This document shows positions 1,404-49,323 of a DNA stretch of 64,000 bases, piece after piece. This stretch comes from Omnitrophica bacterium GWA2_41_15 (lineage in GTDB: Bacteria; Omnitrophota; Gorgyraeia; Gygaellales; UBA12090). The position numbers were made by a program, and so were the translations under genes. The stretch spans positions 64,003 to 128,002 of the forward strand of contig CAKKRH010000001.1 in the NCBI GenBank assembly GCA_919902675.1, in the 5' to 3' direction. How positions within the stretch are numbered: position 1 is the first letter of the stretch; the number at the start of each line of letters is the position of its first letter. The notes below the pieces were generated by a model. The model ran no database searches. It was not told where the DNA came from and saw only the letters and a program-made list of their open reading frames with translations.

Positions 1404-4400
1404 ATGCTCCATAATCTTAACAAACTCATATCCCTCTTTATCTCCTTCTGCCTCATCCTTGAGCAGACAGCCTTTGCCCAAAGCCTAGACCTTTCCCGTT
1501 ACCTTGCCAATTCAACCAAGCCTCTCCTCCAAAGCGATAAGTTCCGCCCCTTACATCTAAGATACATCTCCTACGATAACAAAAGCAATGATTTTAAGCT
1601 GTTGTTAGACAAAGGCGATTTTCTGAAGAGCCCGCTGAAGGGACTATCCCCGCCTGCCCCGAGCAAAGCCGAGGGGCAGGGGACTGTCCCTGATGAAGCT
1701 GAAGCAAGGCTCAAAGAGGCCACCCAAGAGCTGATGAAATACTTCTTCATTGGATTGGCCTTACCCAACGAAAAGTTTTGGGTCAACCTAAGGCCGGACT
1801 CCCCCGACAATATCTTGGACCCGGACTTAGAAAAGACCGATATCGGAAGGATATTCTTAGAAGCTGACCTCCAGCTAAAAAAAGACACCTCAAGCCTTAC
1901 CTCCCCCCAGACCCCGGAAGGCAAGGCCTACTGGGATAAGCTCTACCAGAAGGCAGGGGAATTATACGGCACTGAGAATATCACTATTCCCACCCTAACC
2001 CGTCCCTGGATAGTCCCGGATGAAATCATTCTTAGGGAGTCTCCCGATACTAGCGCCTACATCTATAAAGCCACCTTAAAAGTGATGCTGGAAGAAGACT
2101 ATCTTAAGGGTTATCAGCCTTCAGCCTTCAGCTCTCAGCAATCTAGTCCAAACCTCCAACCTTTAACTTCTAACTACAACTTTTCCGATCCTAGGCTAAA
2201 AGAGCTAAATCAGTATTCTACCCAGTTAATCAGAGAAACCATGATCCCTAAACTTACCCGGGAGATCAACTCCTCCAGGAGATACGCTCCACTAAGACAA
2301 GTCTACTACTCTTTGATCTTAGCCCAGCATTTTAAAAAGAAGTTTATAAACAAATCCGGGCCCTATTCAAGCCTTATGGATTCAAGAGATCTCACTAATT
2401 TAACCTCTCCTGAACCCTGGGATAAGCGGACTTACTTTAAGGAATATCAAAAATCTTTCCAGGAGGGTGAATATAATCTCAAAGCCAGTCAGTCCACGAC
2501 CTATGGTCAGGTTATCCGCAGGTATATGAGCGGGGGAGTGGAACTGGGTAACGGTGGTTCTTCATCTCTGATTATTTCGGCGAAAGATAACAGAATTATA
2601 AATCATCCCGGGATATTAAAGGTTAGCAGTGCTATATTGCCCGGCGACCTTAAGGCGCTTGGCAGGCCAACCAGCAGTCCGGCGGTAGAATATGTGTCAA
2701 AATCTAAGGATTTGCAAATTAGCGATAATCCTAAAATTAAACGAATCTGGGGTGAGATGGTTGAGGAGAACCTAAAACTATATAAATTTGCTCAGGAATT
2801 AACCAAGCTTACCGGTGATTATAACTTTATTAATAAATTCCCTGATGAGGATCTGAATAATCTGCGCGTGTTCTATAATAGCCTGAATGAAAAAGATCAG
2901 GTTTATAATTTAGGTTTTATTACTTTTAATAGCGGCATAGGAAAAAGAAGCGGTTCACAATTAGCCGCACGGTTTAAATTCAACCTCATGTTTTTAGCGA
3001 GCATGGTGAATGCTAAAATAGAGCCTGCTGATATTTTTAATAAAGAAAGGAACAATACTTTATTGGATGATAAGGATATGGAAAAGATTGCTTCCGGAAG
3101 GAAACTTAAAGAAGGTGAAGAGCTTCACTATTTATGGAGACATTTTAAGGCAATGAGTGATATTGTCTGGAAGGGAGTTAATAAAAATAAAGTTGATAAA
3201 TTCTTTAGAAGATTTGAGGATTTGCTGGATATTTTTCAGCAAGAACGCCAGTCGTATGATGAGATCGCGCGGGTTCGCCATGCAGGAGAAAAACCATATA
3301 TGGCAATTTTAAAGCAATATCAAAGTCAGATTCCTGAGCTTATTAATTCTGATTCTCCGAGACAATGGATTGAGCGGCAAGAATTAGTTGGGCCAATCAC
3401 CCCTGAAGGAAAAATAGGGAATATAGGGGATTTTCCTAATCCGCGCTTACCGGGTGAATCTATGGGAAAGGTGAGAAAATTCAGGCTTCCCGATGGCCGG
3501 GAGGTTTACGCTAAGCGAGTTAATCCTTTACGCGCGCGATATCCTGAGGAAGAAATTATGATTTCGCTGGAAGTTGATAAAAGCTTAAAGAAGATCAGCC
3601 CTTATTTTGGCGTGCAGGAGTTTATCGGTATTGTGTATGACCATGGGGCTTTTTACTTATTGTCCCTGGCTATCACCGGAGAAAGATATTCGCCAGATAA
3701 AGAAGAAGCGAATGATCCATACCAATTTAAAGCGGAGGTCGAGAAAATTCTAGTGCCTTTAGGTTTGGGCGATATTGAACATTTATTTATTTATAAAGAC
3801 GGAAATATTCATTGTGTGTTCTTAGATTTTGAAACGTTTCCTTATCATTCAGCCAAAGAAGAGAATAAAGCCACGGAAGCCCTTAAAAGCAGTTTGTCAT
3901 TAGGAAGTGACAGAGAAGTCGGAGTGAGGAATATCGTTTCTTCGGCAACTGATGGCGATTCAGGTGAGTTAATTTTTAAAGGTTTTGAAGGTGAGTCTAA
4001 AGCGGAAATATTAACTAAGGTAATTGGATCGCTTCAGAAAACAGCAAAAGAAATAGAAAAAGCAGGAAAAGAGATGGAGGGTGTAGAAAATGAACAAGTA
4101 AATATTTTTGAAAGATATAAAGCATTTAAGGAGGAGATAGAAACCAATCCGAAATTAATAAAGGAAAAGATAGAAAAATTTGGAGAATTGTTGGATAAGT
4201 TTAGCGCGGAGGTGAGAAACATAGTGAAAAATAACAACAACAATGAAGAAAAAGTGTTTTTTTCAGAAGTATATGTTTCTGTATTTTACGATTTAATAGA
4301 TAAAATTAACAAAGCTAGGTGGTACCCGCATTATATTGAATATGGAGCGAAGGTGGATAACTTCATAAGGGTGATGGACGCTTATATAAAATTATTGTCA

Positions 4401-5639
4401 GATATTCAAAGCCCGGAGAAAATTGAGGAAAAATATGCAGAAAGGATGGCTCACCGATTGGCTGAGTCAGTGGGTGAGCCGAAATTGACCTATCGGTTAT
4501 TAAAAGAATACAACAAACTGCCTCAAGAAGAAAAATCATCCGCTATCCCTGGGCAAATAAAAGAAGCAGAAATAGAGGAGATATTAAAGAACTTTCCTTT
4601 AAATAACCCTGATTGGTTGGGCGGGAAATTAAAAAATAGAATAGCAGAGGATTATGGGAGGCTTTCTGTGCTTGAGCCGATTATTGCTGATCAGTATGGC
4701 CAATCGAATGATTTCTTGCGTTTACCCGATGAAACGATGGATAATCTTAAGGCGCAGTTTAAGGAAAAAGCAAATGAATACTTTTATCTGCCGATAATAA
4801 CTAAGCATTGGATAAAGGTATTAACTTATCAATATTGGGTAAATAGTTATAATTATAAGGTGATTATTGCTAAGAAGTCGGCTTTAGAAAAATCGCTTAA
4901 TTATACGTATAGGGATATTGTTGAAGGTAATGATGATATCTTGCTTTTATGGGAATTTACCTTAAGATCGGAGAATAATCCGCCTACCATAATTCTGGAA
5001 CAACAGGGACTTTATAAAGGGTTGAGGAGGCAGGGATTTATCTCTGAGGCGTATCCCTTGTTTGTTCAAGGCTTAGCTGAGAAATTTCCAGGATGGCAGG
5101 TGGAGGGAGAGTTTGAAAATCCTGAAAGACATGAAAACCCTCCCGCGCTTGTTCTTTTTAAGAACTATTTTCTTGATCCACAACCATTAGATGCAAGAAA
5201 AGACGAAGTGCCGGATTACACAGAACCTGCAATATGGAAGGCGAGAATACCGCCATTTAATCCTCCCTCTTCTCCTGTAAACAACCCCGGAGGTATAGAC
5301 TTGAGCGCCTTGCCCGTTACTATTCAATCCGCTTTAAACCAGCCTTTGACGGCCAATATGCCTATGGCCGGCTCAGCTTTAAATCTCAACCTTAATTTAG
5401 ATAAGGAACTCCGGGATATCCAGGATATGCTTAATGCCGGGATTATGCCTGCAAGCGAAAGGATTAGAGAATATGCCTTGGCCTCCTCATCCCTAAAACC
5501 GGAAGACCACAGCCGGGAAATTGACCGGCTGTTGGGCTGTATTGCCGATATCTTCCGCTTGGAGGAGGAAAAGGCCAAACCCACCCCCCAGGCCTTAAAA
5601 GACGCGCTTATTCTGTTGGAATCGGATCTGGCCGCCTAA
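1404..5639 (+). CDS. Giant exported multidomain protein, paralog of 44054..47620 (shared N and C modules; centre has kinase-like and GNAT-like regions)
   Basis: Long ORF 1290..5639. I moved the start to ATG 1404 because the paralog starts at the equivalent Met (MLHNLNKLISLFISFCLILEQTAFA/QS versus MSTRLIKLISSFLSFCLIFEHGVFA/QS, both signal-peptide-like). The alternative start is TTG 1290. Confidence 0.85.
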   Translation: MLHNLNKLISLFISFCLILEQTAFAQSLDLSRYLANSTKPLLQSDKFRPLHLRYISYDNKSNDFKLLLDKGDFLKSPLKGLSPPAPSKAEGQGTVPDEAEARLKEATQELMKYFFIGLALPNEKFWVNLRPDSPDNILDPDLEKTDIGRIFLEADLQLKKDTSSLTSPQTPEGKAYWDKLYQKAGELYGTENITIPTLTRPWIVPDEIILRESPDTSAYIYKATLKVMLEEDYLKGYQPSAFSSQQSSPNLQPLTSNYNFSDPRLKELNQYSTQLIRETMIPKLTREINSSRRYAPLRQVYYSLILAQHFKKKFINKSGPYSSLMDSRDLTNLTSPEPWDKRTYFKEYQKSFQEGEYNLKASQSTTYGQVIRRYMSGGVELGNGGSSSLIISAKDNRIINHPGILKVSSAILPGDLKALGRPTSSPAVEYVSKSKDLQISDNPKIKRIWGEMVEENLKLYKFAQELTKLTGDYNFINKFPDEDLNNLRVFYNSLNEKDQVYNLGFITFNSGIGKRSGSQLAARFKFNLMFLASMVNAKIEPADIFNKERNNTLLDDKDMEKIASGRKLKEGEELHYLWRHFKAMSDIVWKGVNKNKVDKFFRRFEDLLDIFQQERQSYDEIARVRHAGEKPYMAILKQYQSQIPELINSDSPRQWIERQELVGPITPEGKIGNIGDFPNPRLPGESMGKVRKFRLPDGREVYAKRVNPLRARYPEEEIMISLEVDKSLKKISPYFGVQEFIGIVYDHGAFYLLSLAITGERYSPDKEEANDPYQFKAEVEKILVPLGLGDIEHLFIYKDGNIHCVFLDFETFPYHSAKEENKATEALKSSLSLGSDREVGVRNIVSSATDGDSGELIFKGFEGESKAEILTKVIGSLQKTAKEIEKAGKEMEGVENEQVNIFERYKAFKEEIETNPKLIKEKIEKFGELLDKFSAEVRNIVKNNNNNEEKVFFSEVYVSVFYDLIDKINKARWYPHYIEYGAKVDNFIRVMDAYIKLLSDIQSPEKIEEKYAERMAHRLAESVGEPKLTYRLLKEYNKLPQEEKSSAIPGQIKEAEIEEILKNFPLNNPDWLGGKLKNRIAEDYGRLSVLEPIIADQYGQSNDFLRLPDETMDNLKAQFKEKANEYFYLPIITKHWIKVLTYQYWVNSYNYKVIIAKKSALEKSLNYTYRDIVEGNDDILLLWEFTLRSENNPPTIILEQQGLYKGLRRQGFISEAYPLFVQGLAEKFPGWQVEGEFENPERHENPPALVLFKNYFLDPQPLDARKDEVPDYTEPAIWKARIPPFNPPSSPVNNPGGIDLSALPVTIQSALNQPLTANMPMAGSALNLNLNLDKELRDIQDMLNAGIMPASERIREYALASSSLKPEDHSREIDRLLGCIADIFRLEEEKAKPTPQALKDALILLESDLAA
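2115..2177 (+). repeat. Nine heptamer-periodic units (63 nt = 21 codons) inside giant gene 1
   Basis: cagcctt cagcctt cagctct cagcaat ctagtcc aaacctc caacctt taacttc taactac; encodes QPSAFSSQQSSPNLQPLTSNY. Confidence 0.75.
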
Positions 5640-12488: not shown

Positions 12489-13973
12489 ATGTCATTAAAT
12501 TTTCCGCTTTTAAGTTTAGCCGTATTCTTGCCGATTTTAGGGATTTTAGTTTTGTTTTTCATCCCTAAAAATAAAACCGCTCTAATCCGGGTAACCAGCG
12601 GCATCGTTACCTTTATCACCCTGATTGTCTCGCTGATAATCTTTGCCAACTTTAATATAAATGACCCCAGCCCGCAATTACAGGAACGCTTAAGCTGGAT
12701 ACCCCAGGTAAATATTAATTATCATTTGGGAGTTGACGGCTTAAGCTATTCTATGGTTTTCCTGACCGCGCTTTTATGTTTTCTGGCCTGCGTTGCCTCT
12801 AATTCCATCAAAGAGAGGATTAAGGAGTATTACATCTTTTTTCTGCTTTTAGAAGCCGGGATGATGGGGACATTCCTGGCTTTGGACCTGTTTTTGTTTT
12901 ATGTCTTCTGGGAGATAACCCTGGTTCCGATGTATTTTTTAATCGGTATCTGGGGCGGGCCGAGAAAGGAATACGCGGCCATAAAGTTTTTCCTCTATAC
13001 TTTGGCCGGAAGCGTCTTTATGCTCCTGGGTATTTTAGCCTTGTATTTTACTAGCACCCCGCATACCTTTAATATCTTAGAGTTGACCCAACAGTCTAAG
13101 TTTTTCGCCCTGGCCTTTCAGAATATTGTCTTCTTGGCCTTGTTTTTCGGCTTCGCGGTCAAGGTGCCGGTGTTTCCTTTTCATACCTGGCTTCCTGATG
13201 CCCATGTGGAGGCCCCGACTCCGATAAGCGTGCTTTTGGCCGGGGTTTTGCTGAAGATGGGCGCGTATGGTTTTTTTAGGATAAGTTATCCTATATTACC
13301 CCAGGCCGCCAATTATTTCGCTTTCGCCATCGCGGTGCTGGCGGTAATTAATATCGTTTACGGGGCTTTTGTGGCCATGGCCCAGACGGATTTCAAGAAG
13401 ATGGTGGCCTATTCCAGCGTCAGCCATATGGGTTTTGTAATGCTGGGCCTTGCGGCGTTGAGTCCGGTGGGCTTCAGCGGCGCGGCAATGCAGATGTTTA
13501 ACCACGGGGTAATCACCGGGGCAATGTTTTTATTGGTCGGGGTTCTTTATGACCGGGCGCACACCCGGGAGATGGGCGCTTTTGGCGGCTTAAGGGTTAA
13601 TTTGCCGGTTTTTTCGGCAGTGTTGATTTTCTTTTCTATGGCTTCTTTAGGGCTTCCCGGATTAAGTGGTTTTATCGGTGAGTTTTTATCTTTGTTGGGC
13701 GGCTTTAAGGCTTTTAAGGTAATAACGGTGATCTCGGTTGTGGGTATTGTGATTACCGCCGGGTATATCCTGATTATGATTCAAAAGGTTCTCTTGGGGC
13801 CGATGAACGACAAATGGAAGGGCTTAAGCGAAATCAGCTTTCGGGAATTGGTAACCGTGGTGCCGCTATTAGTTATTGTCTTGGTTCTGGGGGTTTATCC
13901 CAAGCTGGCCCTGGACATTATCAATCCCGCCTTAAATCTTATTCTGAATAATATGGGAGCAGTCTTACCTTGA
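12489..13973 (+). CDS. nuoM: NADH-quinone oxidoreductase subunit M
   Basis: WLPDAHVEAPTPISVLLAG; GAGGAGG RBS upstream. Confidence 0.92.
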   Translation: MSLNFPLLSLAVFLPILGILVLFFIPKNKTALIRVTSGIVTFITLIVSLIIFANFNINDPSPQLQERLSWIPQVNINYHLGVDGLSYSMVFLTALLCFLACVASNSIKERIKEYYIFFLLLEAGMMGTFLALDLFLFYVFWEITLVPMYFLIGIWGGPRKEYAAIKFFLYTLAGSVFMLLGILALYFTSTPHTFNILELTQQSKFFALAFQNIVFLALFFGFAVKVPVFPFHTWLPDAHVEAPTPISVLLAGVLLKMGAYGFFRISYPILPQAANYFAFAIAVLAVINIVYGAFVAMAQTDFKKMVAYSSVSHMGFVMLGLAALSPVGFSGAAMQMFNHGVITGAMFLLVGVLYDRAHTREMGAFGGLRVNLPVFSAVLIFFSMASLGLPGLSGFIGEFLSLLGGFKAFKVITVISVVGIVITAGYILIMIQKVLLGPMNDKWKGLSEISFRELVTVVPLLVIVLVLGVYPKLALDIINPALNLILNNMGAVLP

Positions 13974-15409
13974 TGGACTTATTGCTTGATTTAAAATTCA
14001 TCCAGCCGGAGATTATCTTAATTATTGCCTCCATTCTGGTATTAATGCTGGATTTTATGTTTAAATCCAAGCGTCTCTTGGCCTATTTTTCCCTGTTTTC
14101 TTTATGTTCGGCCTTGCTGGTTTTGTTCCGGGGAAGCCTATCGGCCCACAGCCTGTTTTCGGGGATGCTGGTCAGCGACCCACTGGCTTTGTTTTTGCGG
14201 ATACTTTCGGTTTTTATTACGGCAGTGGTAATTTTGATTTCCATTGATTATCAGGAGATAGGCCCGGGGATGAGGTCGGAGCTTTATTCCCTGCTTTTGA
14301 TGTCGGCCTCGGCAATGATGTTTCTTTCCGGAGCCAATAATCTCTTGATGATTTATTTGGGGATAGAGTTTATCAGTTTGATTTCTTATATCCTGGCCGC
14401 CTACTGGAAGGGGAATCTTAAATCCAGCGAGGCCGGACTTAAATATTTTCTCTTTGGCACTGCTTGTTCCATCACTATGCTTTATGGTATGTCAATTATC
14501 TACGGCATAACCGGCACCCTGGACCTGCCCCAAATGAACCAGGCCTTGTTTAACAATCAATTCAGTCCGGTAGTGATATTTATCGCTATCCTGATGGTTT
14601 CAGTGGGCCTGGCCTTTAAAGTAGCGATGGTGCCTTTTCACTTCTGGTGCCCGGATGTCTACGAGGGAGCGCCCACGCCGGTAACCGCCTTTTTTTCAGT
14701 GGGCCCTAAGTTGTTGGGCTTCGCGGTGTTATTGAGATTTTTGCTCGGAGGCAGTGCTTTATTTTATCAGCATTGGATGCATCTTCTGGGGATTCTGGCC
14801 ATCGCCACTATGGTGGTGGGAAACTTGACCGCCCTGGCCCAGACCAATATTAAGAGATTATTGGCCTATTCTTCAATTGCCCACGCCGGATATGCCTTAA
14901 TCGGCTTAGTGGTAAATACCACTGCCGGATATGTCAGCCTGTTTATTTATTTATCTACCTATATCGTGATGAATCTGGGGGCCTTTGCCGTAGTCATTGC
15001 GGTCTCGAACCAGACCAAAAGCGATGAGATCAAGGATTACGCCGGCTTATCGGCAAACTCACCCTATTTAGCCGCCATGCTCAGCCTGTTTTTAATTTCT
15101 TTGGCCGGTATTCCGCCTTTGGCCGGCTTTATCGGCAAGTTTTATATCTTTAGCTCAGCCTTAAAAGAAGGATTTATCTATCTGGCTATTGCCGCGGTCC
15201 TCAACAGCGTCATTGCCGCTTACTATTATTTCAATATCATCCGCGTAATGTATCTATCCCCTGCTTCAAGTTCAGCCGTGAAAATTAAGCCTTCCCCGGC
15301 ATTAAACCTGGCCCTGGTTTTAAGCCTGCTCCTGGTTTTAGCTATAGGCCTATATCCCAAACCGGTTATAGACTGGGTCAGCGCCGCCTTAGCCTTTCCC
15401 TCGCCTTAA
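13970..15409 (+). CDS. nuoN: NADH-quinone oxidoreductase subunit N
   Basis: HFWCPDVYEGAPTPVTAFF; last gene of the cluster. Confidence 0.92.
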   Translation: MMDLLLDLKFIQPEIILIIASILVLMLDFMFKSKRLLAYFSLFSLCSALLVLFRGSLSAHSLFSGMLVSDPLALFLRILSVFITAVVILISIDYQEIGPGMRSELYSLLLMSASAMMFLSGANNLLMIYLGIEFISLISYILAAYWKGNLKSSEAGLKYFLFGTACSITMLYGMSIIYGITGTLDLPQMNQALFNNQFSPVVIFIAILMVSVGLAFKVAMVPFHFWCPDVYEGAPTPVTAFFSVGPKLLGFAVLLRFLLGGSALFYQHWMHLLGILAIATMVVGNLTALAQTNIKRLLAYSSIAHAGYALIGLVVNTTAGYVSLFIYLSTYIVMNLGAFAVVIAVSNQTKSDEIKDYAGLSANSPYLAAMLSLFLISLAGIPPLAGFIGKFYIFSSALKEGFIYLAIAAVLNSVIAAYYYFNIIRVMYLSPASSSAVKIKPSPALNLALVLSLLLVLAIGLYPKPVIDWVSAALAFPSP

Positions 15410-22043: not shown

Positions 22044-22045
22044 TT

Positions 22046-22143: not shown

Positions 22144-23754
22144 ATGAAAAAGATTGGCCGAAATGACCCTTGCTTTTGTGGTAGCGGGAAAAAATTCAAA
22201 AAGTGCTGTTATGGAAAAACCGAAGTGATCCATCCAGAGGTTCATCTCCAATTCGAACGCCTAAAAGCCAAACAATTACAGATTGAGAAACAACAAGGGT
22301 TGGGCAGATCTATAATATCCCTTGAGCATAAAGGGTATCGTCTTGTAGCTGTAGGCAATCGCATGTACTATTCGCAAAAATGGAAGACATTTCACGACTT
22401 CCTCCTTGAATATATAAGAATGATGTTTGGCAAAGACTGGGGACAGTCGGAATTCAAGAAACCGTTTGAAGAAAGGCATCCTGTGGTTCAATGGCACGAA
22501 ATGGCGCACAAATATATGAGAGAACACCAAAAAGGAAACGATACGATTAATACTGCGCTAATGACGGGCGCTATGTCAGCTTACATAAATCTTTCATATA
22601 ATTTATATCTTTTGGCGCATAATGTAGAAGTCCAAGAACGACTAATTAGACGGTTGAAAGGTATATCCCAATTTCGCGGTGCCCAATATGAAACATATGT
22701 AGCCGCAGAATTCATTAAGGCGGGTTTTAAGTTAGAGATTGAAAATGAAGAAGACAATCAGACTACGCACTGTGAGTTTAGCGTTGTCTCAAAGACTACG
22801 GGTAGAAAGTATTCCATTGAAGCAAAAGCGCGGCAACCTCACAAAGAAAATGTAGCTATCGGCAACCAGTTATATAATGCTTTGAAAAAGAAAGCAAAGC
22901 ATGAGCGGATTGTTTTCATTGATATTAACATTGCTAATTTTATGAAAGAGGTGGCTAATATAGTCAATGAGATAAAAAGTAAAGAGCCAATTTTAAAAAT
23001 CGATGGGTGTCCAGCACCATCGGCATATGTTTTTGTTACCAATCACCCTTTTGAATATGATTTAGAAGGTATGTGTGAACATCGTGCGGGATTTGCGCAT
23101 GGGTTTAAAATTCCGGATTTTGACTTTGATTTTTGTTTTACAAACATTCGAGACGTCCTAAAGGCTCGCGAAAAGCACAATGATATGTTTGACTTAGTGA
23201 AATCGATTTGTGAACATGAAGAGATTCCTTCAACTTTTGATGGAGAAACTCCTGAATTTGCCTTTGCGGGAAAAGATGCTCCGCCAAGATTAACTATCGG
23301 TGAGAAATATGCTATTCCTGGACATGAAGGCAAAGTTATGGAGGGAGTCCTTGTCAATGCAACGGTATCAGAGGAAGAAAAGAAGATATTCGGCGCCTAT
23401 CGCACAAAAGAAGGAACGCAGGTTATTTGTACGAATCCTCTGACCGATGAAGAGTTAATAGCTTACAAGAGGCAACCAGATACATTTTTTGGTGTTCATC
23501 TGAAACAGGGAAAGAGGGCATGGGATCCATTAGATTTGTTTGATTTCTTTTACGGAAGTTACAAAAATTGCCCCAGGGAAAAGCTATTGAGTTTTCTGGA
23601 AAATAGGCCAGATTTTGAAAAAATTAAAACTTTGGACACGCAAGAATTACTTATTACATGTTGTGAAGGGTGGGCATACTCAGCAGTTGATAGTTTCAAT
23701 AAGGGAGAAAAGATTAAGGAGGGGATGAATGAGCAATACGATGTTCATGATTAG
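22144..23754 (+). CDS. SEC-C motif protein with a central PD-(D/E)xK-like nuclease core candidate
   Basis: N-terminal GRNDPCFCGSGKKFKKCC (SEC-C Zn motif). aa 180-230: QYETYVAAEF...HCEFSVV...YSIEAKAR (E...E...E-x-K pattern). Confidence 0.7.
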   Translation: MKKIGRNDPCFCGSGKKFKKCCYGKTEVIHPEVHLQFERLKAKQLQIEKQQGLGRSIISLEHKGYRLVAVGNRMYYSQKWKTFHDFLLEYIRMMFGKDWGQSEFKKPFEERHPVVQWHEMAHKYMREHQKGNDTINTALMTGAMSAYINLSYNLYLLAHNVEVQERLIRRLKGISQFRGAQYETYVAAEFIKAGFKLEIENEEDNQTTHCEFSVVSKTTGRKYSIEAKARQPHKENVAIGNQLYNALKKKAKHERIVFIDINIANFMKEVANIVNEIKSKEPILKIDGCPAPSAYVFVTNHPFEYDLEGMCEHRAGFAHGFKIPDFDFDFCFTNIRDVLKAREKHNDMFDLVKSICEHEEIPSTFDGETPEFAFAGKDAPPRLTIGEKYAIPGHEGKVMEGVLVNATVSEEEKKIFGAYRTKEGTQVICTNPLTDEELIAYKRQPDTFFGVHLKQGKRAWDPLDLFDFFYGSYKNCPREKLLSFLENRPDFEKIKTLDTQELLITCCEGWAYSAVDSFNKGEKIKEGMNEQYDVHD

Positions 23755-24010
23755 TAGTGTTATTACTGCAATTGCCACAACAGTGATAGCCTTATTTTCT
23801 TGGCGAAGTTTTTGTTTGTCTGGAGAAATCAAGAAGGCGACGGAAAACCAGTGTAAGAAAGAAGAAGACTTTAAAAGCCAGACTAAAGACCTTTATCAGG
23901 CTATTGTCATATCAAATATTCTTTCTGGGCCGAGTAGTTATGGTGCGTTGACTCAAGCTATAGACGCTTTTAAGTCTCAATACAAAGGCACATTTAAGAT
24001 ATTTGATTAG
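23729..24010 (+). CDS. Small single-TM protein (93 aa)
   Basis: AAGGAGGGG RBS 4-5 nt upstream. N-terminal TM segment MFMISSVITAIATTVIALFSW. Overlaps the SEC-C gene by 26 nt and the next gene by 8 nt. Confidence 0.55.
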   Translation: MSNTMFMISSVITAIATTVIALFSWRSFCLSGEIKKATENQCKKEEDFKSQTKDLYQAIVISNILSGPSSYGALTQAIDAFKSQYKGTFKIFD

Positions 24011-24020
24011 GACATTTAAT

Positions 24021-24653
24021 ATGCAAAGACGCGAAACTTTGTCAATAATCTGCTTAACTTTTTCTCTTTTGATTTTCAGCGTTATAATTCCTATTTCCCG
24101 AAACAAAGTAGATAGAGTGAAAGAAAGGAGAGAAACGTATTTTCGCAACCTATTGAGTGCACAATTTCATCAGGCCATTGGAACTATTTCAACAAATCTT
24201 TGGTCAGCTCTCGATGTCTTAAAAAAATCAAAAGGCATAGAGAATGTCGAATTAAAGGCATCTATTGAAGAAATCCAAAAGATTTATTTCGAACAGGCTG
24301 AAAATTCCGCCACCAATTTTTATTTTTTACAGACCGAGCCAGTCACAGATGATAATAAACCGGATAAAAGGCGATATAACAAAATAAAACAGGACATTAA
24401 ACAAAAATCAAAAATGCTCAACATATATTCGGACTCATTTTTAGCAGATTTTAATCAGAAGTATATTAAGGAGCTTACTTTCTGGAATCTAATTGAGATG
24501 TCGGGATATATTTTTGCCATTTTCTTGCAAATTCTCGGGGTCTGGTTAGGGCTCATAACAAAGAACAACTCTACCGAAAGCATCCTAAAAGAAATAAGAT
24601 CTATAAATAGTAGACTTAACATGTTCCAGCTTCGTAAGAAGCAGGCTCCATAA
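24021..24653 (+). CDS. Two-TM membrane protein (about 210 aa) with a helical middle
   Basis: TM1 LSIICLTFSLLIFSVIIPI and TM2 YIFAIFLQILGVWLGLI. The alternative TTG start at 24003 overlaps the upstream gene. Confidence 0.55.
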   Translation: MQRRETLSIICLTFSLLIFSVIIPISRNKVDRVKERRETYFRNLLSAQFHQAIGTISTNLWSALDVLKKSKGIENVELKASIEEIQKIYFEQAENSATNFYFLQTEPVTDDNKPDKRRYNKIKQDIKQKSKMLNIYSDSFLADFNQKYIKELTFWNLIEMSGYIFAIFLQILGVWLGLITKNNSTESILKEIRSINSRLNMFQLRKKQAP

Positions 24654-24674
24654 ATTTTTTACGAAAGTTTCTTT

Positions 24675-25463
24675 ATGAAAATATCGATATACCCTCTTCA
24701 CGAACTTGATTCAGATGTAACTCTGCCAGTAGAAATAGCAAATGGGGTTACCGTTATTTCAAATAATATCGATATTCGTAAAATAAAGAAAATAAATGTT
24801 TCAAAAGAAGATGCACATCACCTTGTTGACCCTAAATTATGCTTACAGGTTAATGAGAAGATTGTTTCTCCTGAGAAAGCGTCCATTGTTTTTATTATTT
24901 CCTGTCGCCTGCTGAAACGCACGAAAGTTTTCATACGTTATAGAGTGGATTCCTCAAGCGAAGTAAGAAAAATTAGAGATGATTATCCTTTTGTTACCTC
25001 TAGAAATGTTACAACAGAAATTAAAGGGCAAGAATTTAAGAAAATTGCTAAATTATACCTAGGATTAAATGAGTTTAAGGATATCAACAAAAGAACTGGA
25101 AATGCGGCTTATTTTCTAGGTATGGCATATAGATCAAGAGGTTGGTTAGAATCCTTAATATTTCACGTATGTGCGCTGGAAACATTAACATTGGCATCAA
25201 ATAGAGAAAGTAGTATTACGCAAAAATTTAAAGAAAGGATTCATAATTTTATTGGCTACGATAAAGACAAGCTGGAAAAAATTTATAATATACGTTCCGA
25301 ACTAGTCCATGGAAGATACAGCTATAGCTCTGCAAAGCAGAATCTAAGGTTATTTAGAATTGCCGAAGATGTTAGCAGAAGGATGTTTAAGAAAATATTA
25401 CTAAATCCAAAACATTTAAAAGCTTTCATAAATGATAGCTCTCGCATGAAATTATTTTTATAA
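24675..25463 (+). CDS. HEPN-domain protein (R-x4-H RNase motif), Apea/MAE_28990-like
   Basis: IYNIRSELVHGRY (R207-x4-H212, nt 25293..25310) in a C-terminal helical domain. The N-terminal half is unrecognised. Confidence 0.65.
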   Translation: MKISIYPLHELDSDVTLPVEIANGVTVISNNIDIRKIKKINVSKEDAHHLVDPKLCLQVNEKIVSPEKASIVFIISCRLLKRTKVFIRYRVDSSSEVRKIRDDYPFVTSRNVTTEIKGQEFKKIAKLYLGLNEFKDINKRTGNAAYFLGMAYRSRGWLESLIFHVCALETLTLASNRESSITQKFKERIHNFIGYDKDKLEKIYNIRSELVHGRYSYSSAKQNLRLFRIAEDVSRRMFKKILLNPKHLKAFINDSSRMKLFL

Positions 25464-44053: not shown

Positions 44054-47000
44054 ATGTCTACCAGATTGATCAAACTTATATCTTCTTTTCTCTCTTTCTG
44101 CCTAATTTTTGAGCATGGTGTTTTTGCTCAGAGTATAGACCTCTCGCATTATTTTGCCCATAGTCCTGCTCAAGCAATTCCCCAGAGTGATAAATTCCGC
44201 CCCTTACATTTAAGGTATATCTCCTATGACAGCCAGGCTAATGATTTCAAACTGCTCTTAGATAAAGGTGACTTTATGAAGGGACTGTCCCCGAAGGTAA
44301 CTGTCCCTGATGAGAGACTACAAGAGGAAACCCAAACCCTGATGAAATATTTCTTTATCGTCCTATCCTTGCCCAATGAGAAGTTCTGGGTCAACCTGAG
44401 GCCGGATTCTCCGGATAATATCTTAGATCCGGACCTGGAGAAGACAGACATCGGAAGGATATTTTTGGAAGCTGATGTCCAGCTAAAGAAAGACACCGCA
44501 GGAATGACCTCACCTCAAACCCCGGAAGGCAAGGTCTATTGGGATAAGCTCTATAAGAAGGCAGGGGAATTATTCGGCAGCGAAAACATCACCATCCCCA
44601 CCCTAACCCGGCCCTGGATAGTGCCCAATGAGATAATCATCCGAGAAGCCCCGGATAATGCCTATATCTATAAGGCCACCCTCAAAGTAATGCTGGAGGA
44701 AGACTATCTCAAGGGCTATCAGCCTTCAGCCTTCAGCTCTCAGCAATCTAGCCCAAACTTCCAACCTCTAACTTCAAACTACAGTTTCTCTGACCCCAGG
44801 TTAAAGGAACTTAATAAGTATTCTACCCAGCTGATCAAGGAAACAATCATCCCGAAGCTCACCTATGCGGTGAACACCTCAAAGAGATACGCCCCCTTAA
44901 GGCAGGTGTATTATTCACTGATCCTGGCCCAGTGGTTTAAACAAAAATATGGTCCCCAGTCCCCGGTCTCGGGTCTGCGGTCAGCAGAGCAAAATAATCC
45001 CTATATCAAGCTTATAGATTCCGGCAGCCTAACCTCAAACTTCCAACTTCTAACTTCCCAAAGTCCTTATTCTAAAGAGACCTACTTCCAGCAATACCAG
45101 AAGTCATTTAAGGACGGCGAATACAACCTCCAGGAGCCGGTGTATACGCCAATGGGGCAGAGTATCAGGAGGTATATAAGCGGGGGGATGCAGATAGATT
45201 GTTCTTCGGCGATTGAGGCAGGAAAAATAAAGGCTACCCTAAAGCCATTTTTCAGTAAAATATCCTTGCCGTTTTTTATTGCAGTAACCGCTATCTACTC
45301 AAGCATAGTTTTTAAAGAAAAAATTAAGCCAAATCCTAAGGTAGTAAAAGAATTGATTTCGGCAATAAATGAAAAAGGCGGAAAAATAAATTTTGCTGAT
45401 TATATGTCTATATGCCTATATGGCGATGGAGGATATTATACCAGCGGAACAGTAAATATAGGTGATGGGAGAGTTAATGGTCAGCGATATAAAGGCGATT
45501 TCAGCACTTTTCCGGAAAGTTCTCCACATGCATTCGGCTATGGCCTTGCCGAAAAGATCTATGAAATGTGGAATAATATGGAGAACCCAAACAATTTCCA
45601 GGTAGTGGAAATGGGAGCCGGAAACGGAACAACGGCAAAAATTATTTTAGAATATATTCAGCAGAAATATCCTGAATTTATGAATAGTCTTACTTATACT
45701 ATAGTGGAAATAAGCCCGGCATTGATTGAGAGACAGAAGAAGACTATGCAAGGTATGGCTTATCCTGTAAGATGGATTTTAGGATCCGCAATAGAGATGC
45801 CGTTAAAGAATGTGGTGGGCGTATTTCTTTCTAATGAGCTTCCAGATGCTTTTCCTGTTCGCTTAGTAAGAAAAGACCCCAATGACAGGATAAAAGAAGT
45901 ATTCGTGACTTATAAGAATGGGGTTTTTATGGAAGAGCTCGGAGATATTTTAGACCCAGGAATTAATAAGTATATCAATATGTTGCGAAATAACACTATC
46001 TCAAATGAGGTAAAATATTTATTTTTAAAGAATACCCCTATAAATCTAAATATGATTAAATGGCAGAAAGATATTTATGATAGCCTTAAAAGAGGATACA
46101 TGATTACCTTCGATTACGGCTACAATGGTCCTGCTGGCGCGGGAGATCTCGGTTTACGTGTATACGGCGATAAGCATAAATTTAAATTCAGAGATTCGCT
46201 TCTAAATTCGGGGGAATACATTTATACTTTACCTGGTCAATTTGATATTACGGCAAATGTAAATCTCAAAACATTGCTACAGAATGGGGAAGAAAAAGGA
46301 TTTTCTGGCAGCCAATTAATTGAACAAGGAGAATTCTTTGCGCAAATCCCCGAAAAAGTATTTAAAGGGTATTTACAGGAAAGAGCAAATCTCGCGCATA
46401 AAGATTTTTATGTTCTTACGCAAGGTAAGGATGTTCTTCCAATAGGTTCATTGCCTGCGCGACAATCATTCTCCAGCTCGGCGGTGGAGGGAGGAGAGAA
46501 GAAATTAAGGGAATTGTTATCTAAGCATCCAAAACTGAAGATAGAGTATGACCTTTTTAAAGAGTTTGGGGTTGGCCTGGGAACTAATATTTTAGAAATT
46601 GGTATTGGATCTGAGCATAGAGGAACTGTAGCGGCGGCAATGGGAGCGCATTATCGTCAGTATGAAATATCAGGGGAGATATACGGATTCTCATTCAAAG
46701 AATACATTGATTCTATTGAAATCCCAGGATACAAATATGAGTTCCCTCTTAAGAATAATTTATCCAGCCATAATGGACATGTGGGTGAGGGAACATACAA
46801 TTATATCAGAGGTGAGTTTTCGGGAGGTAATAAATCAGTATCAAATAAGATTGGAAGAGAAGGCTATGTTGAGAACAAGAGTCAAGATATAATTATAGCA
46901 ATGACGGGAGCGTTATCCGACCCTATTCCAGAATCAAACGCACACGATGTTCTTAGAGAAATGTTACGAGTGCTCAAGCCGGGAGGAATGCTCGTGGTAG

Positions 47001-47620
47001 GAACTTACGGTTTATGGGGCAAGGATATAGGGTTGAGTATGCCGCATCCTGAATTGCATGGTTATGAATTTCATAAGTTTAGGAAAGTTGTGAGCGATGT
47101 ATTGAAAGAGCCTGAATGGAGAGGAAAGGTTTTGTTCTCTCAGAGGGAAGAGTTAAGCAGGCAGGATTTTGATCATTTTTTTTCCTTTGACGTATATAAG
47201 ATAGATTTTATCAATTCGTCTCCGTTTGAAAATAACAATAGTAATACGGTTAATAGTTCGTCAAGCTCACTATTAGCAAGTAGCGACAAAGGCGGCATTG
47301 ACTTCCACGCCCTGCCTATTCAAACCGAATCCGTTGCTTCGTCTGCTTTAGGTCTTTTTTCTGCTTTGGGCGCGTTTAAAGGCGATCTTGACGCCGAATG
47401 GTCCCAGATTCAAGCCATCTTTAACTCCGGGATCCGGCCGTCTATCCAGCGTTTGAGTGAATATACCGCCGCGGCCGCCGCCAGTCCTCTGGGCGAAGGT
47501 AAAATTGATCAGGTCAGGGTTATGCTTGCTGACATCCTGCGCCGCGATGAAGAAAGTCAAAAGTCCGCTCCCGCCGAAGAATCCTGCAAGCAGCTACTTA
47601 GACTGCTTGAATCGGGATAA
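44054..47620 (+). CDS. Giant signal-peptide multidomain protein, paralog of 1404..5639; centre holds a MidA/NDUFAF7-like methyltransferase and a second class I SAM methyltransferase
   Basis: MidA-like: YMSICLYGDGGYYTSG, GDFSTFPESSPHAFG, VVEMGAGNGT, FLSNELPDAFPV (aa 430-790). Second MTase: ILEIGIGSE, LRVLKPGGMLVVGTYG (aa 815-1050). N and C modules are shared with giant gene 1. Confidence 0.88.
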   Translation: MSTRLIKLISSFLSFCLIFEHGVFAQSIDLSHYFAHSPAQAIPQSDKFRPLHLRYISYDSQANDFKLLLDKGDFMKGLSPKVTVPDERLQEETQTLMKYFFIVLSLPNEKFWVNLRPDSPDNILDPDLEKTDIGRIFLEADVQLKKDTAGMTSPQTPEGKVYWDKLYKKAGELFGSENITIPTLTRPWIVPNEIIIREAPDNAYIYKATLKVMLEEDYLKGYQPSAFSSQQSSPNFQPLTSNYSFSDPRLKELNKYSTQLIKETIIPKLTYAVNTSKRYAPLRQVYYSLILAQWFKQKYGPQSPVSGLRSAEQNNPYIKLIDSGSLTSNFQLLTSQSPYSKETYFQQYQKSFKDGEYNLQEPVYTPMGQSIRRYISGGMQIDCSSAIEAGKIKATLKPFFSKISLPFFIAVTAIYSSIVFKEKIKPNPKVVKELISAINEKGGKINFADYMSICLYGDGGYYTSGTVNIGDGRVNGQRYKGDFSTFPESSPHAFGYGLAEKIYEMWNNMENPNNFQVVEMGAGNGTTAKIILEYIQQKYPEFMNSLTYTIVEISPALIERQKKTMQGMAYPVRWILGSAIEMPLKNVVGVFLSNELPDAFPVRLVRKDPNDRIKEVFVTYKNGVFMEELGDILDPGINKYINMLRNNTISNEVKYLFLKNTPINLNMIKWQKDIYDSLKRGYMITFDYGYNGPAGAGDLGLRVYGDKHKFKFRDSLLNSGEYIYTLPGQFDITANVNLKTLLQNGEEKGFSGSQLIEQGEFFAQIPEKVFKGYLQERANLAHKDFYVLTQGKDVLPIGSLPARQSFSSSAVEGGEKKLRELLSKHPKLKIEYDLFKEFGVGLGTNILEIGIGSEHRGTVAAAMGAHYRQYEISGEIYGFSFKEYIDSIEIPGYKYEFPLKNNLSSHNGHVGEGTYNYIRGEFSGGNKSVSNKIGREGYVENKSQDIIIAMTGALSDPIPESNAHDVLREMLRVLKPGGMLVVGTYGLWGKDIGLSMPHPELHGYEFHKFRKVVSDVLKEPEWRGKVLFSQREELSRQDFDHFFSFDVYKIDFINSSPFENNNSNTVNSSSSSLLASSDKGGIDFHALPIQTESVASSALGLFSALGAFKGDLDAEWSQIQAIFNSGIRPSIQRLSEYTAAAAASPLGEGKIDQVRVMLADILRRDEESQKSAPAEESCKQLLRLLESG
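44720..44782 (+). repeat. Nine heptamer-periodic units (63 nt) inside giant gene 2; ortholog of 2115..2177
   Basis: cagcctt cagcctt cagctct cagcaat ctagccc aaacttc caacctc taacttc aaactac. Confidence 0.75.
45025..45059 (+). repeat. Second heptamer tract (5 units ACYTCYA) in giant gene 2
   Basis: cagccta acctcaa acttcca acttcta acttccc; encodes SLTSNFQLLTSQ. Confidence 0.65.
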
Positions 47621-47758
47621 GTAAACAATTCTCTTGGCATTAACACAGTCTTTGGAATGTGGTATATCTGTTTCATTTAGTCTGCCTTTAGGTTGACCTA
47701 TTGAAACAAATCCGCCCCTTTTTCAGCGTGACATAAATAGGGATGAAAAAACGGGAAC

Positions 47759-47786
47759 TTGACACTCGTCTTTAAGTGTGATACTT
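47759..47786 (+). promoter_or_regulatory. Sigma70-type promoter of the TA cassette
   Basis: TTGACA (47759..47764), 16-nt spacer ending in tgtg, then ATACTT. A GGAGGTG RBS precedes ATG 47825. Confidence 0.5.
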
Positions 47787-47824
47787 TTGTAAATGTACGG
47801 TATAACCCATTCGGAGGTGAAAAT

Positions 47825-48037
47825 ATGTCGCCAGCAACAACAGTTATCTCTAAGGCATTACATTTAAAGCCATCGGAGCGTTTTTTCGTCATTGAGGCCT
47901 TAATAAAAAGCCTTGATAATCCTGATCCGGCAATTGATAAGGCTTGGGCTGTTGAGGCGGAAAAAAGGCTTAAGGCATATAAGTCTGGGAAGGCAAGAAC
48001 TGTTTCTTTTGAGGGGATGTTCGAGAAACATTCATGA
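47825..48037 (+). CDS. Addiction-module antitoxin (putative addiction module component family)
   Basis: 70 aa, ...LHLKPSERFFVIEALIKSLD..D..IDKAW..EAEKR...YKSGK. 4-nt overlap with the toxin gene. Confidence 0.7.
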   Translation: MSPATTVISKALHLKPSERFFVIEALIKSLDNPDPAIDKAWAVEAEKRLKAYKSGKARTVSFEGMFEKHS

Positions 48038-48324
48038 AAATCGAGATCCTTGAAATCGCCGGCAAGGAGTTTATATCCGCCAAAGAGTTCTACGAATTAG
48101 AACAGTCTGATTTAGGCGCCACATTTGAAAATGAGATAAAACATGCCTTGTTTCGTATACAACGCTATCCCACAGCTTGGTTATGCGAACGAAAAGAAAT
48201 CCGCCGTTATTTTGTCCATCGCTTCCCTTACAAAATTCTTTACTCAATTCAAAAGGAAATTATTATCGTCCTTGCCTTTGCCCATCTGCACAGAAAGCCT
48301 GAATATTGGATTGGCAGGATTTAG
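48034..48324 (+). CDS. RelE/ParE-family toxin
   Basis: 96 aa, ...RYFVHRFPYKILYSIQKEIIIVLAFAHLHRKPEYW, a typical ParE/RelE C-terminal core. Confidence 0.72.
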   Translation: MKIEILEIAGKEFISAKEFYELEQSDLGATFENEIKHALFRIQRYPTAWLCERKEIRRYFVHRFPYKILYSIQKEIIIVLAFAHLHRKPEYWIGRI

Positions 48325-48365
48325 ATCCCGCAAGCAAGCTCCTTAGACTGCTTGTATCGCTATCC
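48325..48365 (+). repeat. Direct repeat of the last 40 nt of giant gene 2 (47581..47620)
   Basis: atcccgcaagcaagctccttagactgcttgtatcgctatcc versus atcctgcaagca-gctacttagactgcttgaatcgggataa, about 31/35 identical over the core. Starts right after the toxin stop codon. Confidence 0.75.
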
Positions 48366-48422
48366 CATGCGCCCAGAAAAAGTCGGAAACCCACTTTGCG
48401 CGTTTCCTTAGCCGAGGCGGTG

Positions 48423-48591
48423 TTAAACCCGGAATTTGCAATAGTAATGGCATTCGCCGCCAAATAAGGGCGCATCTTCGTCAGAAAAAAGCGCTTACAT
48501 ACTAAAAGTATGCGCGCACTTTTTTCTGCCAAATCTACACCCTTCTTTGGCGCCCTCGGTGTCCGCATTCCTATTGCAAAATCCGGGTTAA
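48423..48591. repeat. Long imperfect palindrome of about 170 bp (MITE-like or structured RNA) with roughly 26-bp terminal inverted repeats
   Basis: Left end AACCCGGAATTTGCAATAGTAATG versus the reverse complement of the right end AACCCGGATTTTGCAATAGGAATG (22/24). Internal arms CCAAATAAGGG / CCAAAGAAGGG. Centre at about 48505. Confidence 0.6.
48482..48528 (+). terminator. Bidirectional rho-independent terminator at the core of the palindrome
   Basis: CAGAAAAAAGCGC...CATACT aaa AGTATG...GCGCacTTTTTTCTG, with an A6 run on the 5' side and a T6 run on the 3' side. Confidence 0.65.
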
Positions 48592-48618
48592 AGGGATATG
48601 AGCTAATCTGCAAGAGAT

Positions 48619-49323
48619 ATGAGAAGTGAAATTTTAGTCTTCATCCACGGCTGGGCCAGTGTGCCGGATATATGGGAAACGCAGAAGGAGTATTTTTCCA
48701 GAAATTATGAGGTAATTTTGCCGGATATAGGCCCGGCCCGGGATATTCAGGAAGCGGCGGGATTAGTCAGGGACGCGATTCAGGGTAGCGATGATTTTGT
48801 CCTGGCCGGCTGGTCCTTGGGGTGGCTGGCAGTCTTAGAGGGGCTTAAGAGTTTTTCTTTAAAGCCCAAGGCTGTGGTGGCGGTGAATTCTACCCCTAAA
48901 TTCTGCTCTCACGAATATCTGGGGGCAGGTTCCACCAAAACTCACCTGGATAAGATGATTCGGGATTGTAGGCGCGACCCGCGAAAAACTATGGAGAATT
49001 TTTATAAGGGTATGCTTACGGATAATGGAAAGAGTATGGCAAATAGTTTTCAATTTAAAAACATAGATTATAGCAAGCTGATGTATGGCTTGTCCATGCT
49101 TAGGGACGCTGATTATCGGGATTTTATCGGCACTATAGATATCCCGGCGCTGATTATTACCGGGGCAAGGGATAATATTTGTGTTCCCCAGGTATCCGAA
49201 TATATGCGTCAGAGGATTAAGCAGTCGGATTTAAAGGTTTTTGACTGCGGGCATCTGCCGTTTCTGGATAAGGCGGATGAATTTAATTCTGCCGTAGATG
49301 ATTTTATTAAAAAGTTAAAATGA
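48619..49323 (+). CDS. bioH: Pimeloyl-ACP methyl ester carboxylesterase (alpha/beta hydrolase)
   Basis: HGWA..., GWSLGW nucleophile elbow, C-terminal GHLPF. Adjacent to and overlapping bioC. Confidence 0.75.
   Translation: MRSEILVFIHGWASVPDIWETQKEYFSRNYEVILPDIGPARDIQEAAGLVRDAIQGSDDFVLAGWSLGWLAVLEGLKSFSLKPKAVVAVNSTPKFCSHEYLGAGSTKTHLDKMIRDCRRDPRKTMENFYKGMLTDNGKSMANSFQFKNIDYSKLMYGLSMLRDADYRDFIGTIDIPALIITGARDNICVPQVSEYMRQRIKQSDLKVFDCGHLPFLDKADEFNSAVDDFIKKLK

Follow-up and report, generated by a model that had tools for sequence, protein, structure and literature searches.

Members of the Omnitrophota are ultra-small episymbionts or predators and, for Candidatus Velamenicoccus archaeovorus, open cytoplasmic contact in micrographs and predator intron RNA in prey cells have been reported (PMC13153191; PMC10066038). 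Here we describe a gene of this phylum which encodes a protein of 1188 amino acids (aa) and is located at positions 44054..47620 of a 64,000-nucleotide (nt) stretch, hereafter the window, of contig CAKKRH010000001.1 (positions 64,003 to 128,002, forward strand) from Omnitrophica bacterium GWA2_41_15. The protein begins with a predicted signal peptide and a conserved N-terminal module (N module), continues with an enzymatic central part, the cargo, which includes a methyltransferase domain of the MidA/NDUFAF7 type, and ends with a conserved C-terminal tail (C tail); it belongs to a large family in which the ends are constant and the cargo varies.

The Omnitrophota giants of the 'Archaeovorin' type (West-Roberts et al. 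2023, a 2026 preprint and Seymour et al. 2023) are, in the accessible text of these sources, proteins of the same phylum that combine signal peptides or transmembrane (TM) helices with domains of the methyltransferase, GNAT, radical SAM, HAD and kinase types, and for which predation or episymbiosis has been suggested as a role. As described there, they differ in their size, from at least 10 up to 147 thousand amino acids, in carrying C39/S8 peptidase and SecA-like domains and in having type II secretion system, Tad and pilZ neighbours, whereas the window protein has 1188 aa, biotin-synthesis neighbours and no secretion genes nearby. Long Omnitrophota proteins joining signal peptides or TM helices with methyltransferase, GNAT and HATPase domains have been catalogued in the accessible parts of two reports (10.64898/2026.06.07.730766; 10.1101/2023.11.21.568195) and in one of them DeepTMHMM assigns a signal peptide to 48% of the long Omnitrophota proteins, a figure that is not specific to the N-module family (10.64898/2026.06.07.730766). 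While the combination of a signal peptide with cytoplasm-type enzymes has thus already been described, no mention was found of the shared ~350-aa N module or of the tail, with its GGIDF motif and four helices, in the open-access literature searched, including the accessible text of 10.1101/2023.11.21.568195, 10.64898/2026.06.07.730766 and PMC10066038, and the frame that they form together appears undescribed there.

Two further groups of proteins invite comparison. Polymorphic toxins (Rhs, CdiA) likewise join a constant part to a variable, AT-richer enzymatic part and occur as many paralogs per genome. However, in the family described here the variable part is central, with a constant end on each side, and does not form the C-terminal tip, no immunity gene recurs downstream in 79 loci, the cargo consists of protein-modifying and regulatory enzymes instead of nucleases, deaminases or pore formers, and the constant parts do not resemble Rhs, haemagglutinin-repeat, PAAR, LXG or related domains. 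The cargo proteins of the Bacteroidota type IX secretion system share with the family an N-terminal Sec signal, variable domains and a conserved C-terminal domain of ~100 aa present in many paralogs. In the Bacteroidota, Gln often follows directly after the signal-peptidase site (the 'Q-rule'). Their C-terminal domain is a beta-sandwich, in contrast to the predicted four-helix tail here, which resembles pentatricopeptide or tetratricopeptide repeats (PPR/TPR); moreover, they lack a large conserved N module and belong to another phylum.

Architecture and Constant Ends

The main features of the protein are as follows, with coordinates in the window:

44054..47620, + strand: whole open reading frame (ORF), 1188 aa, in the order signal peptide, N module, linker, MidA methyltransferase, second methyltransferase-like domain, Ser-rich linker, C tail
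44054..44128, + strand: signal peptide of the Sec/signal peptidase I type, aa 1-25 (MSTRLIK / LISSFLSFCLIF / EHGVFA, then QS)
44129..45187, + strand: conserved N module, aa 26-378, with an invariant S-G-G at its end and the motifs DKFRP, FWVNLRPD, IPTLTRPWI and RYAPLRQVYYSL
45260..45313, + strand: moderately hydrophobic stretch ISLPFFIAVTAIYSSIVF, aa 403-420, in a Lys-rich linker at the start of the cargo segment with low G+C content at third codon positions (GC3)
45335..46423, + strand: MidA/NDUFAF7-type S-adenosylmethionine (SAM)-dependent methyltransferase domain (PF02636, COG1565), aa ~428-790, with the Pfam core at aa 498-749 (nt 45545-46300)
46556..47188, + strand: divergent class-I-methyltransferase-like domain, aa ~835-1045, with the motifs ILEIGIGSE, GEFSGG, TGALSDPIPES, LRVLKPGG and EPEWRGK
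47291..47305, + strand: GGIDF motif with invariant Gly-Gly, aa 1080-1084, at the start of the C tail, preceded by a Ser-rich linker with NSSPF
47387..47614, + strand: C-terminal four-helix domain, aa 1112-1187, with the PPR/TPR-like hairpin motif EW.QIQ..F.NAGI.PS

The signal peptide was called from rule-based geometry, namely a positive n-region, a core of 7-15 residues and small residues at positions -3 and -1. In this protein R4 and K7 precede a 12-residue core and a V-F-A site followed by Q. Among the 189 family members with complete N-termini, the n-region carries a net charge between +1 and +6, 172 have an uncharged core of exactly 12 aa, and the residues after the core read (E/Q)Q.(G/V/A)FA with the cut expected before a following Q (GFAQ in 102, VFAQ in 19 and AFAQ in 17). 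AlphaFold places a helix at residues 3-23. A core of 12 residues cannot stably span a membrane, and the geometry is therefore not that of an anchor; it is predicted to be that of a cleavable Sec signal peptide and it is uniform across the 189 members. In this respect an earlier note on the window, made from the sequence alone, was right in describing a signal-peptide protein.

The first ~380 aa share 55-77% identity with the N-termini of hundreds of proteins whose downstream domains are unrelated. Neither the N module nor the C tail matched a Pfam, NCBIfam, PADLOC or PHROG entry, the PADLOC and PHROGs scans yielding generic methyltransferase-fold matches only. In the AlphaFold2 model the N module is an alpha/beta domain in which three beta-hairpins are accompanied by long helices (predicted local distance difference test score, pLDDT, 72; predicted template modelling score 0.69), for which Foldseek found nothing significant in the PDB and BFVD. 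The sole match of an N-module profile to PDB sequences, an adenovirus-type penton protein (E=0.1 over 70 residues), was judged to be due to chance.

The C tail of ~110 aa (aa 1075-1188) comprises the GGIDF motif and four helices, and it lay outside the feature as delimited by the earlier note, which ended at 47204 although the tail is a conserved part of the same protein. AlphaFold predicts a disordered GGIDF.ALP segment and then the four-helix domain (pLDDT ~90). Homolog searches with the tail returned short, unnamed fragments only, and its fold had no significant match in the PDB, the top weak ones being PPR proteins. Assignment of the tail as a PPR protein was rejected, the E-value of 6e-12 being inflated by ten identical designed repeats at 2-6 bits each, and the tail motif EW.QI..M..AGI.PS probably represents a resemblance to the PPR consensus helix only.

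Invariant Gly-Gly pairs occur on both sides of the cargo, in the SGG at the end of the N module and in the GG of GGIDF. They were considered as C39 double-glycine cleavage sites and rejected by inspection against the leader consensus, since hydrophobic residues are lacking at -7, -12 and -15; no C39 peptidase was found in the 64-kb window. A search of the protein for a lipobox, a C-terminal TM helix or a beta-barrel found none. Domain boundaries in the family are also marked by a linker motif, [AS]SSP[VLAIM], which occurs 158 times in the protein set P0001-P0223 against 3.6 in shuffles (~45-fold) and lies 4-47 residues ahead of GGIDF in ~50 proteins; here it is at aa 1054-1058 (nt 47213-47227). 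The motif may be a processing or modification site.

A Modular Family of the Omnitrophota

In an exhaustive HMMER scan with aa 1-385, 7,279 cluster representatives matched at E<=1e-3, of which 3,863 also passed E<=1e-30. Among the 150 representatives listed, which range from 356 to 7,391 aa, nearly all start the module within the first ~60 residues, and in ~100 of the 120 relatives listed the C tail is at the very C-terminus and the N module at the N-terminus, whatever the cargo. The cargo domains include PrmA-like, CheR and other methyltransferases, GNAT, radical SAM/B12, RIO1, HPr kinase and HPr and, further, low-molecular-weight phosphatase, metallophosphatase, M23 and M48 peptidases, DnaJ, HEAT, PPDK_N and HD.

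Within the GTDB species representatives, 412 loci carry the N module. The best 80 of these all belong to Omnitrophota or to metagenome-assembled genomes (MAGs) labelled 'bacterium' or 'Planctomycetales', which are unclassified or mislabelled, and at least 13 of them come from one MAG and at least 9 from another. Named close relatives of the 1188-aa protein are all Candidatus Omnitrophota. The family is very large and multi-copy and, judging from these searches, apparently restricted to the Omnitrophota. Recurrent neighbours in 79 loci are housekeeping genes only (glmS, an rsmI-like gene and an intein-containing gene), with glmS-rsmI in ~20 loci, and these glmS/rsmI-like neighbours probably reflect one syntenic ortholog group.

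The window itself holds two copies of the family, the second being:

1404..5639, + strand: paralog with signal peptide, N module and C tail as in 44054..47620, and ~900 aa of different cargo

The two proteins are 70% identical in the N module and 34% in the C tail. The ~900-aa cargo of the paralog has no Pfam match. The mechanical ORF of the paralog begins at TTG 1290; homology favours ATG 1404 and the former is probably the wrong start. By eye, aa 720-860 of the paralog (VYAKRV ... LDFETF) resemble an atypical kinase.

The MidA and Methyltransferase-like Domains

The earlier note had assigned aa 430-790 to the MidA/DUF185 family on the basis of three motifs, and this assignment is correct by every sequence criterion tested. 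PF02636 (Methyltransf_28, MidA/DUF185) matches aa 498-749 with E=4e-43 and 148.1 bits, well above the Pfam cut-off of 23.3, over profile positions 2-242 of 249. All three motifs are present, GDFSTFPE at aa 481-488, VEMGAGNGT at aa 518-526 and NELPDAFPV at aa 594-602. Solved structures matched by phmmer include 4f3n (E=1e-10), 1zkd and 5ztz, an NDUFAF7 homolog, and the motifs GDF.T.PE, VE.G.G.G and NE..DA.P align with their equivalents in 4f3n and 1zkd.

Outside the family, the domain comes closest (33-37% identity) to stand-alone proteins of ~380 aa that occur in diverse bacteria, and the 120 matches listed in a search with the domain alone are 66-566 aa long, mostly ~380 aa. When the embedded domains were compared with stand-alone bacterial MidA in a neighbour-joining tree without support values, 8 of 8 family-embedded domains and one contig-end fragment formed a single clade of their own. 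This single clade suggests that MidA was captured once and then spread inside the carrier family. The domain thus shares motifs and a strong profile match with the MidA/NDUFAF7 family (PF02636, COG1565; 4F3N, 1ZKD, 5ZTZ/5ZZW), but the known members are stand-alone proteins of ~380-450 aa in the cytoplasm or mitochondrial matrix, whereas here the domain lies inside a 1188-aa protein, behind a signal peptide and a 350-aa module and before a methyltransferase-like domain and the tail. Both this architecture and the probable location appear to be unlike those of all characterised members.

For the region that follows, described earlier as a second class I SAM methyltransferase core, the case is weaker than this description implies. 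A profile built from four sequences (the query and the homologous domains of P0003, at 52% identity, P0051 and P0145) matched class I methyltransferases only in the PDB, at E=0.002-0.005 and from motif I to post-III. In the whole-protein scan PF13649 scored 29.6 bits against a cut-off of 27, covering profile positions 61-97 only, whereas aa ~835-1045 scanned alone gave 18.2 bits, under that cut-off. Furthermore, the glycine loop ILEIGIGSE is not kept in the three homologs, two of which have GPLTRK and GTRNNP. The region is probably a divergent class-I-like domain of uncertain activity.

Compositional Mosaic

The gene is a mosaic in its GC3 content, with values of 0.55 in the N module, 0.32 in the MidA domain, 0.37 in the second methyltransferase-like domain and 0.49 in the tail; the drop occurs at the module boundary, just ahead of the hydrophobic stretch. 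The paralog has the same pattern, with 0.56, 0.35 and 0.55 for N module, cargo and tail, respectively. In complete family genes from other genomes (L002-L076), the GC3 of the cargo (mean 0.35) is below that of the N module (0.53) in 38 of 38 and below that of the tail (0.51) in 37 of 38; it is also below the mean of the neighbouring genes (0.51; Wilcoxon p~8e-8). The constant ends, at ~0.5-0.55, agree with the genome, and the switch to ~0.35 falls at the module boundaries. Polymorphic toxin genes that recombine, Rhs among them, characteristically have an AT-richer variable part. By this analogy the mosaic may reflect horizontally moving cargo cassettes that recombine between constant ends; alternatively, the cargo may be under much weaker constraint than the ends.

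A short palindrome was also observed in the variable loops of the N module:

44281..44291, strand not assigned: 11-nt palindrome GGGACTGTCCC, in variable loop 1 of the N module, encoding GLSP

In the 889 kb of family loci (L002-L080), 37 copies of the form GGGAC(A/T)GTCCC, encoding GLSP or GTVP, were counted, compared with 0-3 in shuffles. Of these copies, 31 are in family ORFs, in two variable N-module loops (codons ~75-111 and ~283-328), where they are often paired as hairpins that yield peptides such as GLSPKGTVP. In the window it is confined to the two paralogs (44281-44291 and 1680-1690). It looks like a small in-frame inserted element or a recombination signal.

The Hydrophobic Stretch ahead of the Cargo

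The earlier note placed a single strongly hydrophobic stretch between the N module and the methyltransferases and stated that the paralog lacks it. Its position was exact (ISLPFFIAVTAIYSSIVF, aa 403-420, nt 45260-45313) and the paralog at 1404..5639 is indeed without it; the hydrophobicity was overstated. Kyte-Doolittle hydropathy (KD) over 19 residues is 1.70, within the range of seven comparable segments (1.66-1.93) in 5,739 residues of soluble enzymes of the window, or one per ~820 aa; the Nuo membrane helices have a median of 1.89. The residues of the stretch include Pro, Thr, Tyr and three Ser; its DNA is AT-rich (GC3 0.27), and it falls in a region, aa 378-425, that AlphaFold models as coil (pLDDT ~40) from an alignment that holds no homolog rows for it.

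In 7 of 7 other full-length MidA-bearing relatives (P0031, P0036, P0043, P0045, P0046, P0049 and P0207) the stretch is missing and low-complexity linkers occur instead. P0026 retains a homologous stretch, ahead of a different cargo, and hydrophobic segments occupy the equivalent place in P0011, P0019 and P0055. Family-wide, 10 of 220 members show a segment of KD>=1.6 within 70 aa of the N-module end (25-65 residues after it), some of them strong (KD 1.9-2.15), and 170 of 220 have no such 19-residue window anywhere downstream of the N module. At one per ~3,100 residues, these segments are rarer downstream of the N module than in soluble enzymes (~820). The stretch at aa 403-420 is probably a weak, lineage-specific linker element rather than a family membrane anchor, and hydrophobic segments after the N module are best regarded as optional or relic linker elements.

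One of these 10 members is P0087, where an internal Tat-like (twin-arginine) signal, TRREFLK (SQTRREFLKMIGIGAVATAVTVSSF), lies directly after the N module at aa ~395-430; it looks as if this cargo gene retained its own export signal.

Possible Functions

We tentatively regard the gene, with a probability of about 0.4, as a member of a modular carrier family whose products are exported, cassette-swapping enzyme carriers or polymorphic enzymatic effectors. Such a carrier protein would consist of two constant ends around a freely exchangeable enzyme block. The signal peptide would take it across the cytoplasmic membrane, the constant ends would serve to handle it, whether by sorting it, anchoring it or passing it to a partner or target, and the cargo would do the work. 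Since it needs SAM, the cargo would act within the cytoplasm of a host or prey cell to which the producer is attached, or at a fused cell-cell interface. A further-reaching proposal is that the N module and C tail constitute a hitherto unrecognised, phylum-wide protein-delivery system of the Omnitrophota, with the ends as a bipartite export or translocation handle, possibly cut at Gly-Gly, and thousands of recombination-shuffled enzymes, from protein methyltransferases like this MidA to kinases, phosphatases, acetyltransferases and radical SAM enzymes, sent into the cytoplasm of attached bacteria or archaea so as to reprogramme or kill them; in this full form we consider it doubtful.

The puzzle pointed out in the earlier note, of a signal peptide ahead of cofactor-dependent, cytoplasm-type enzymes, holds and extends to a very large family. 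Two solutions had been offered, a topology split by the hydrophobic stretch and export of the whole protein to work in another cell. At the family level the latter fits better, because the signal-peptide geometry is uniform, the ends are constant and the cargo is swappable and compositionally foreign, and because the repertoire is rich in protein-modifying enzymes and the phylum is episymbiotic or predatory. Several points weigh against the exported carrier. Its export or injection, cleavage and delivery are inferred from sequence, in distinction to the architecture, family size, copy number, signal-peptide geometry and compositional mosaic, which are observed. Radical SAM cargo with Fe-S clusters would be hard to square with unfolded Sec export. 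No conserved secretion, immunity, peptidase or other partner gene stands beside family members in the 79 loci, and no secretion genes were found in the 64-kb window. Finally, a minority of members have a hydrophobic helix after the N module, in some cases strong (KD 2.1), and since the stretch of this protein is common to P0026 and other members have such a helix, a split topology retains some probability for this protein.

It is unlikely, in our estimate, that the ends form a cytoplasmic-face scaffold which, through an uncleaved N-terminal helix or aborted export, tethers regulatory enzymes at the inner membrane of the producer, where MidA would methylate the cell's own proteins. The cargo would be at home there, all its types being cytoplasm-type and cofactor-dependent (radical SAM, HPr, HPr kinase and PrmA-like among them), no secretion genes were found nearby, and the high conservation of the ends (55-77% identity) would suit self-assembly or a common partner; moreover, the accessible text of the 2026 preprint sees long proteins rich in methyltransferase, GNAT and HATPase domains as compatible with an inner-membrane-anchored, cytoplasm-facing state (10.64898/2026.06.07.730766). 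However, with its 12-residue core, positive n-region and small -3/-1 residues the N-terminus is built like a cleavable signal peptide and not like an anchor, an N-in orientation would translocate the bulk of the protein, and the foreign composition and swappability of the cargo would be left unexplained. The signal-anchored, two-compartment protein envisaged as the first solution in the earlier note, with the N module outside as sensor or anchor, aa 403-420 stopping transfer and the methyltransferases and tail inside, would account for the SAM supply of the enzymes, and it can draw on the presence of the 18-aa stretch with Lys-rich segments on both sides, on the homologous stretch of P0026, on the equivalently placed segments of P0011, P0019 and P0055 and on the 10 of 220 members with a segment within 70 aa of the module end (KD 1.9-2.15 in some). 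Nevertheless, this solution is poorly supported and we hold it to be quite unlikely: the stretch is marginal, its KD of 1.70 being no higher than that of soluble-enzyme segments in the window, its residues include Pro, Thr, Tyr and three Ser, AlphaFold gives a low-confidence coil there, and its AT-rich sequence (GC3 0.27) favours Phe, Ile and Tyr codons. Since its flanks are positive on both sides, there is no orientation signal. The stretch is absent in seven MidA-bearing relatives and in 95% of the family, 170 of 220 members being without any downstream segment, so that under a split topology the same domains would lie on opposite sides of the membrane in close relatives.

Flagellin is a filament subunit with conserved ends and a variable middle, and the layout of the family, together with the signal peptide and the envelope-active nature of some cargo (M23 and M48 peptidases), would be compatible with a surface coat or display in which, after Sec export, the N module and/or the C tail hold the protein in the envelope or in an extracellular coat like that proposed for the giant protein of Ca. 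Velamenicoccus, and the enzymes are exposed outside, where they target prey surfaces or have a structural or binding function. The accessible text of two reports also proposes that giant Omnitrophota proteins form an extracellular coat or degrade cell walls (PMC10066038; 10.1101/2023.11.21.568195). Outside cells, however, the domains that depend on SAM, ATP, phosphoenolpyruvate or acetyl-CoA would be without cofactor, the intact catalytic motifs of MidA argue for an active enzyme, and no anchoring motif (lipobox, C-terminal TM helix or beta-barrel) was found, which makes display distinctly improbable. Very improbable, finally, is a housekeeping role in complex I assembly, by which MidA would symmetrically dimethylate an arginine of the cell's own NuoD, as NDUFAF7 does in NDUFS2, the extra modules being incidental. 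In NDUFS2 the methylated arginine lies in the motif HRGXE, and Paracoccus complex I also carries this modification (PMC8042128). A nuo operon is present in the same window and its NuoD (7231-8337) reads LHRDFEK, with HRDFE in place of the canonical HRGXE, the arginine being kept and Gly changed to Asp. Yet the same arginine is conserved even where it is unmethylated, as in E. coli (PMC8042128), and its presence here is therefore uninformative. Moreover, the operon is 29 kb away, with a defence island and unrelated metabolism genes between, the gene under study lies in a biotin-synthesis cluster, MidA is one of dozens of interchangeable cargo types, and the signal peptide would move it out of the compartment in which NuoD is assembled. 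The link to nuo, put forward as speculation in the earlier note, thus gains no support.

Gene Boundaries and Genomic Context

The gene sequence is 99.96% identical to a copy on ENA metagenome contig ERZ1286166 contig_28 (2.155 Mb). One difference affects the reading frame:

47176..47183, + strand: T8 homopolymer, T7 in the ENA copy

With T7 the gene call is cut to 1049 aa and the tail is split off as an 84-aa ORF. T8 is probably the right homopolymer length because the window reading continues into the tail that is conserved family-wide. The two copies differ over 9.15 kb in three indels and a single mismatch, a pattern typical of homopolymer errors in long reads. No signal above background came from scans for promoters and terminators around the gene.

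The gene lies among bioB-, bioF-, bioC- and bioA/D-like biotin-synthesis genes. Downstream, two small ENA-annotated ORFs in 47620-48619 (L001 6771-7270) precede the next gene of the biotin cluster; one has an Unstab_antitox domain (PF09720) and they are probably a toxin-antitoxin pair. The remainder of the window carries the nuo genes, a defence island, and central metabolism and cofactor genes. By Pfam the nuo operon includes nuoB, D, H, J, L and M, and 13970..15409 is likely to be nuoN. The defence or mobile island at 15584-29137 encodes AbiEi/AbiEii, RadC, a type I restriction-modification methylase and specificity subunit, a SEC-C-motif protein, a TOTE-system primase-helicase and three ORFs without a Pfam match. 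GC3 is 0.26-0.45 in most of its ORFs, with higher values for RadC (0.52) and the N6-methylase (0.49).

Significance

The Omnitrophota are abundant, uncultured nanobacteria for which the mode of attacking or exploiting hosts is an open question, and earlier work has centred on giant genes with content that is hard to interpret. The family described here offers a searchable signature, a fixed signal peptide with the N module and a GGIDF/four-helix tail, found in more than 7,000 clusters and in a dozen or more copies per genome, which separates the 'handle' from the 'cargo'. If the proteins stay in the producer, they would constitute a membrane-tethered scaffold for dozens of regulatory enzymes, an unusual cell-biological arrangement. 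If, on the other hand, the handle is an export or delivery signal, the signature would provide a direct catalogue of candidate effectors and testable substrates for secretion and topology assays, the family would be a new example of cassette-type effector diversification, and the protein of this window would be the first MidA-family protein arginine methyltransferase recruited outside complex I assembly.

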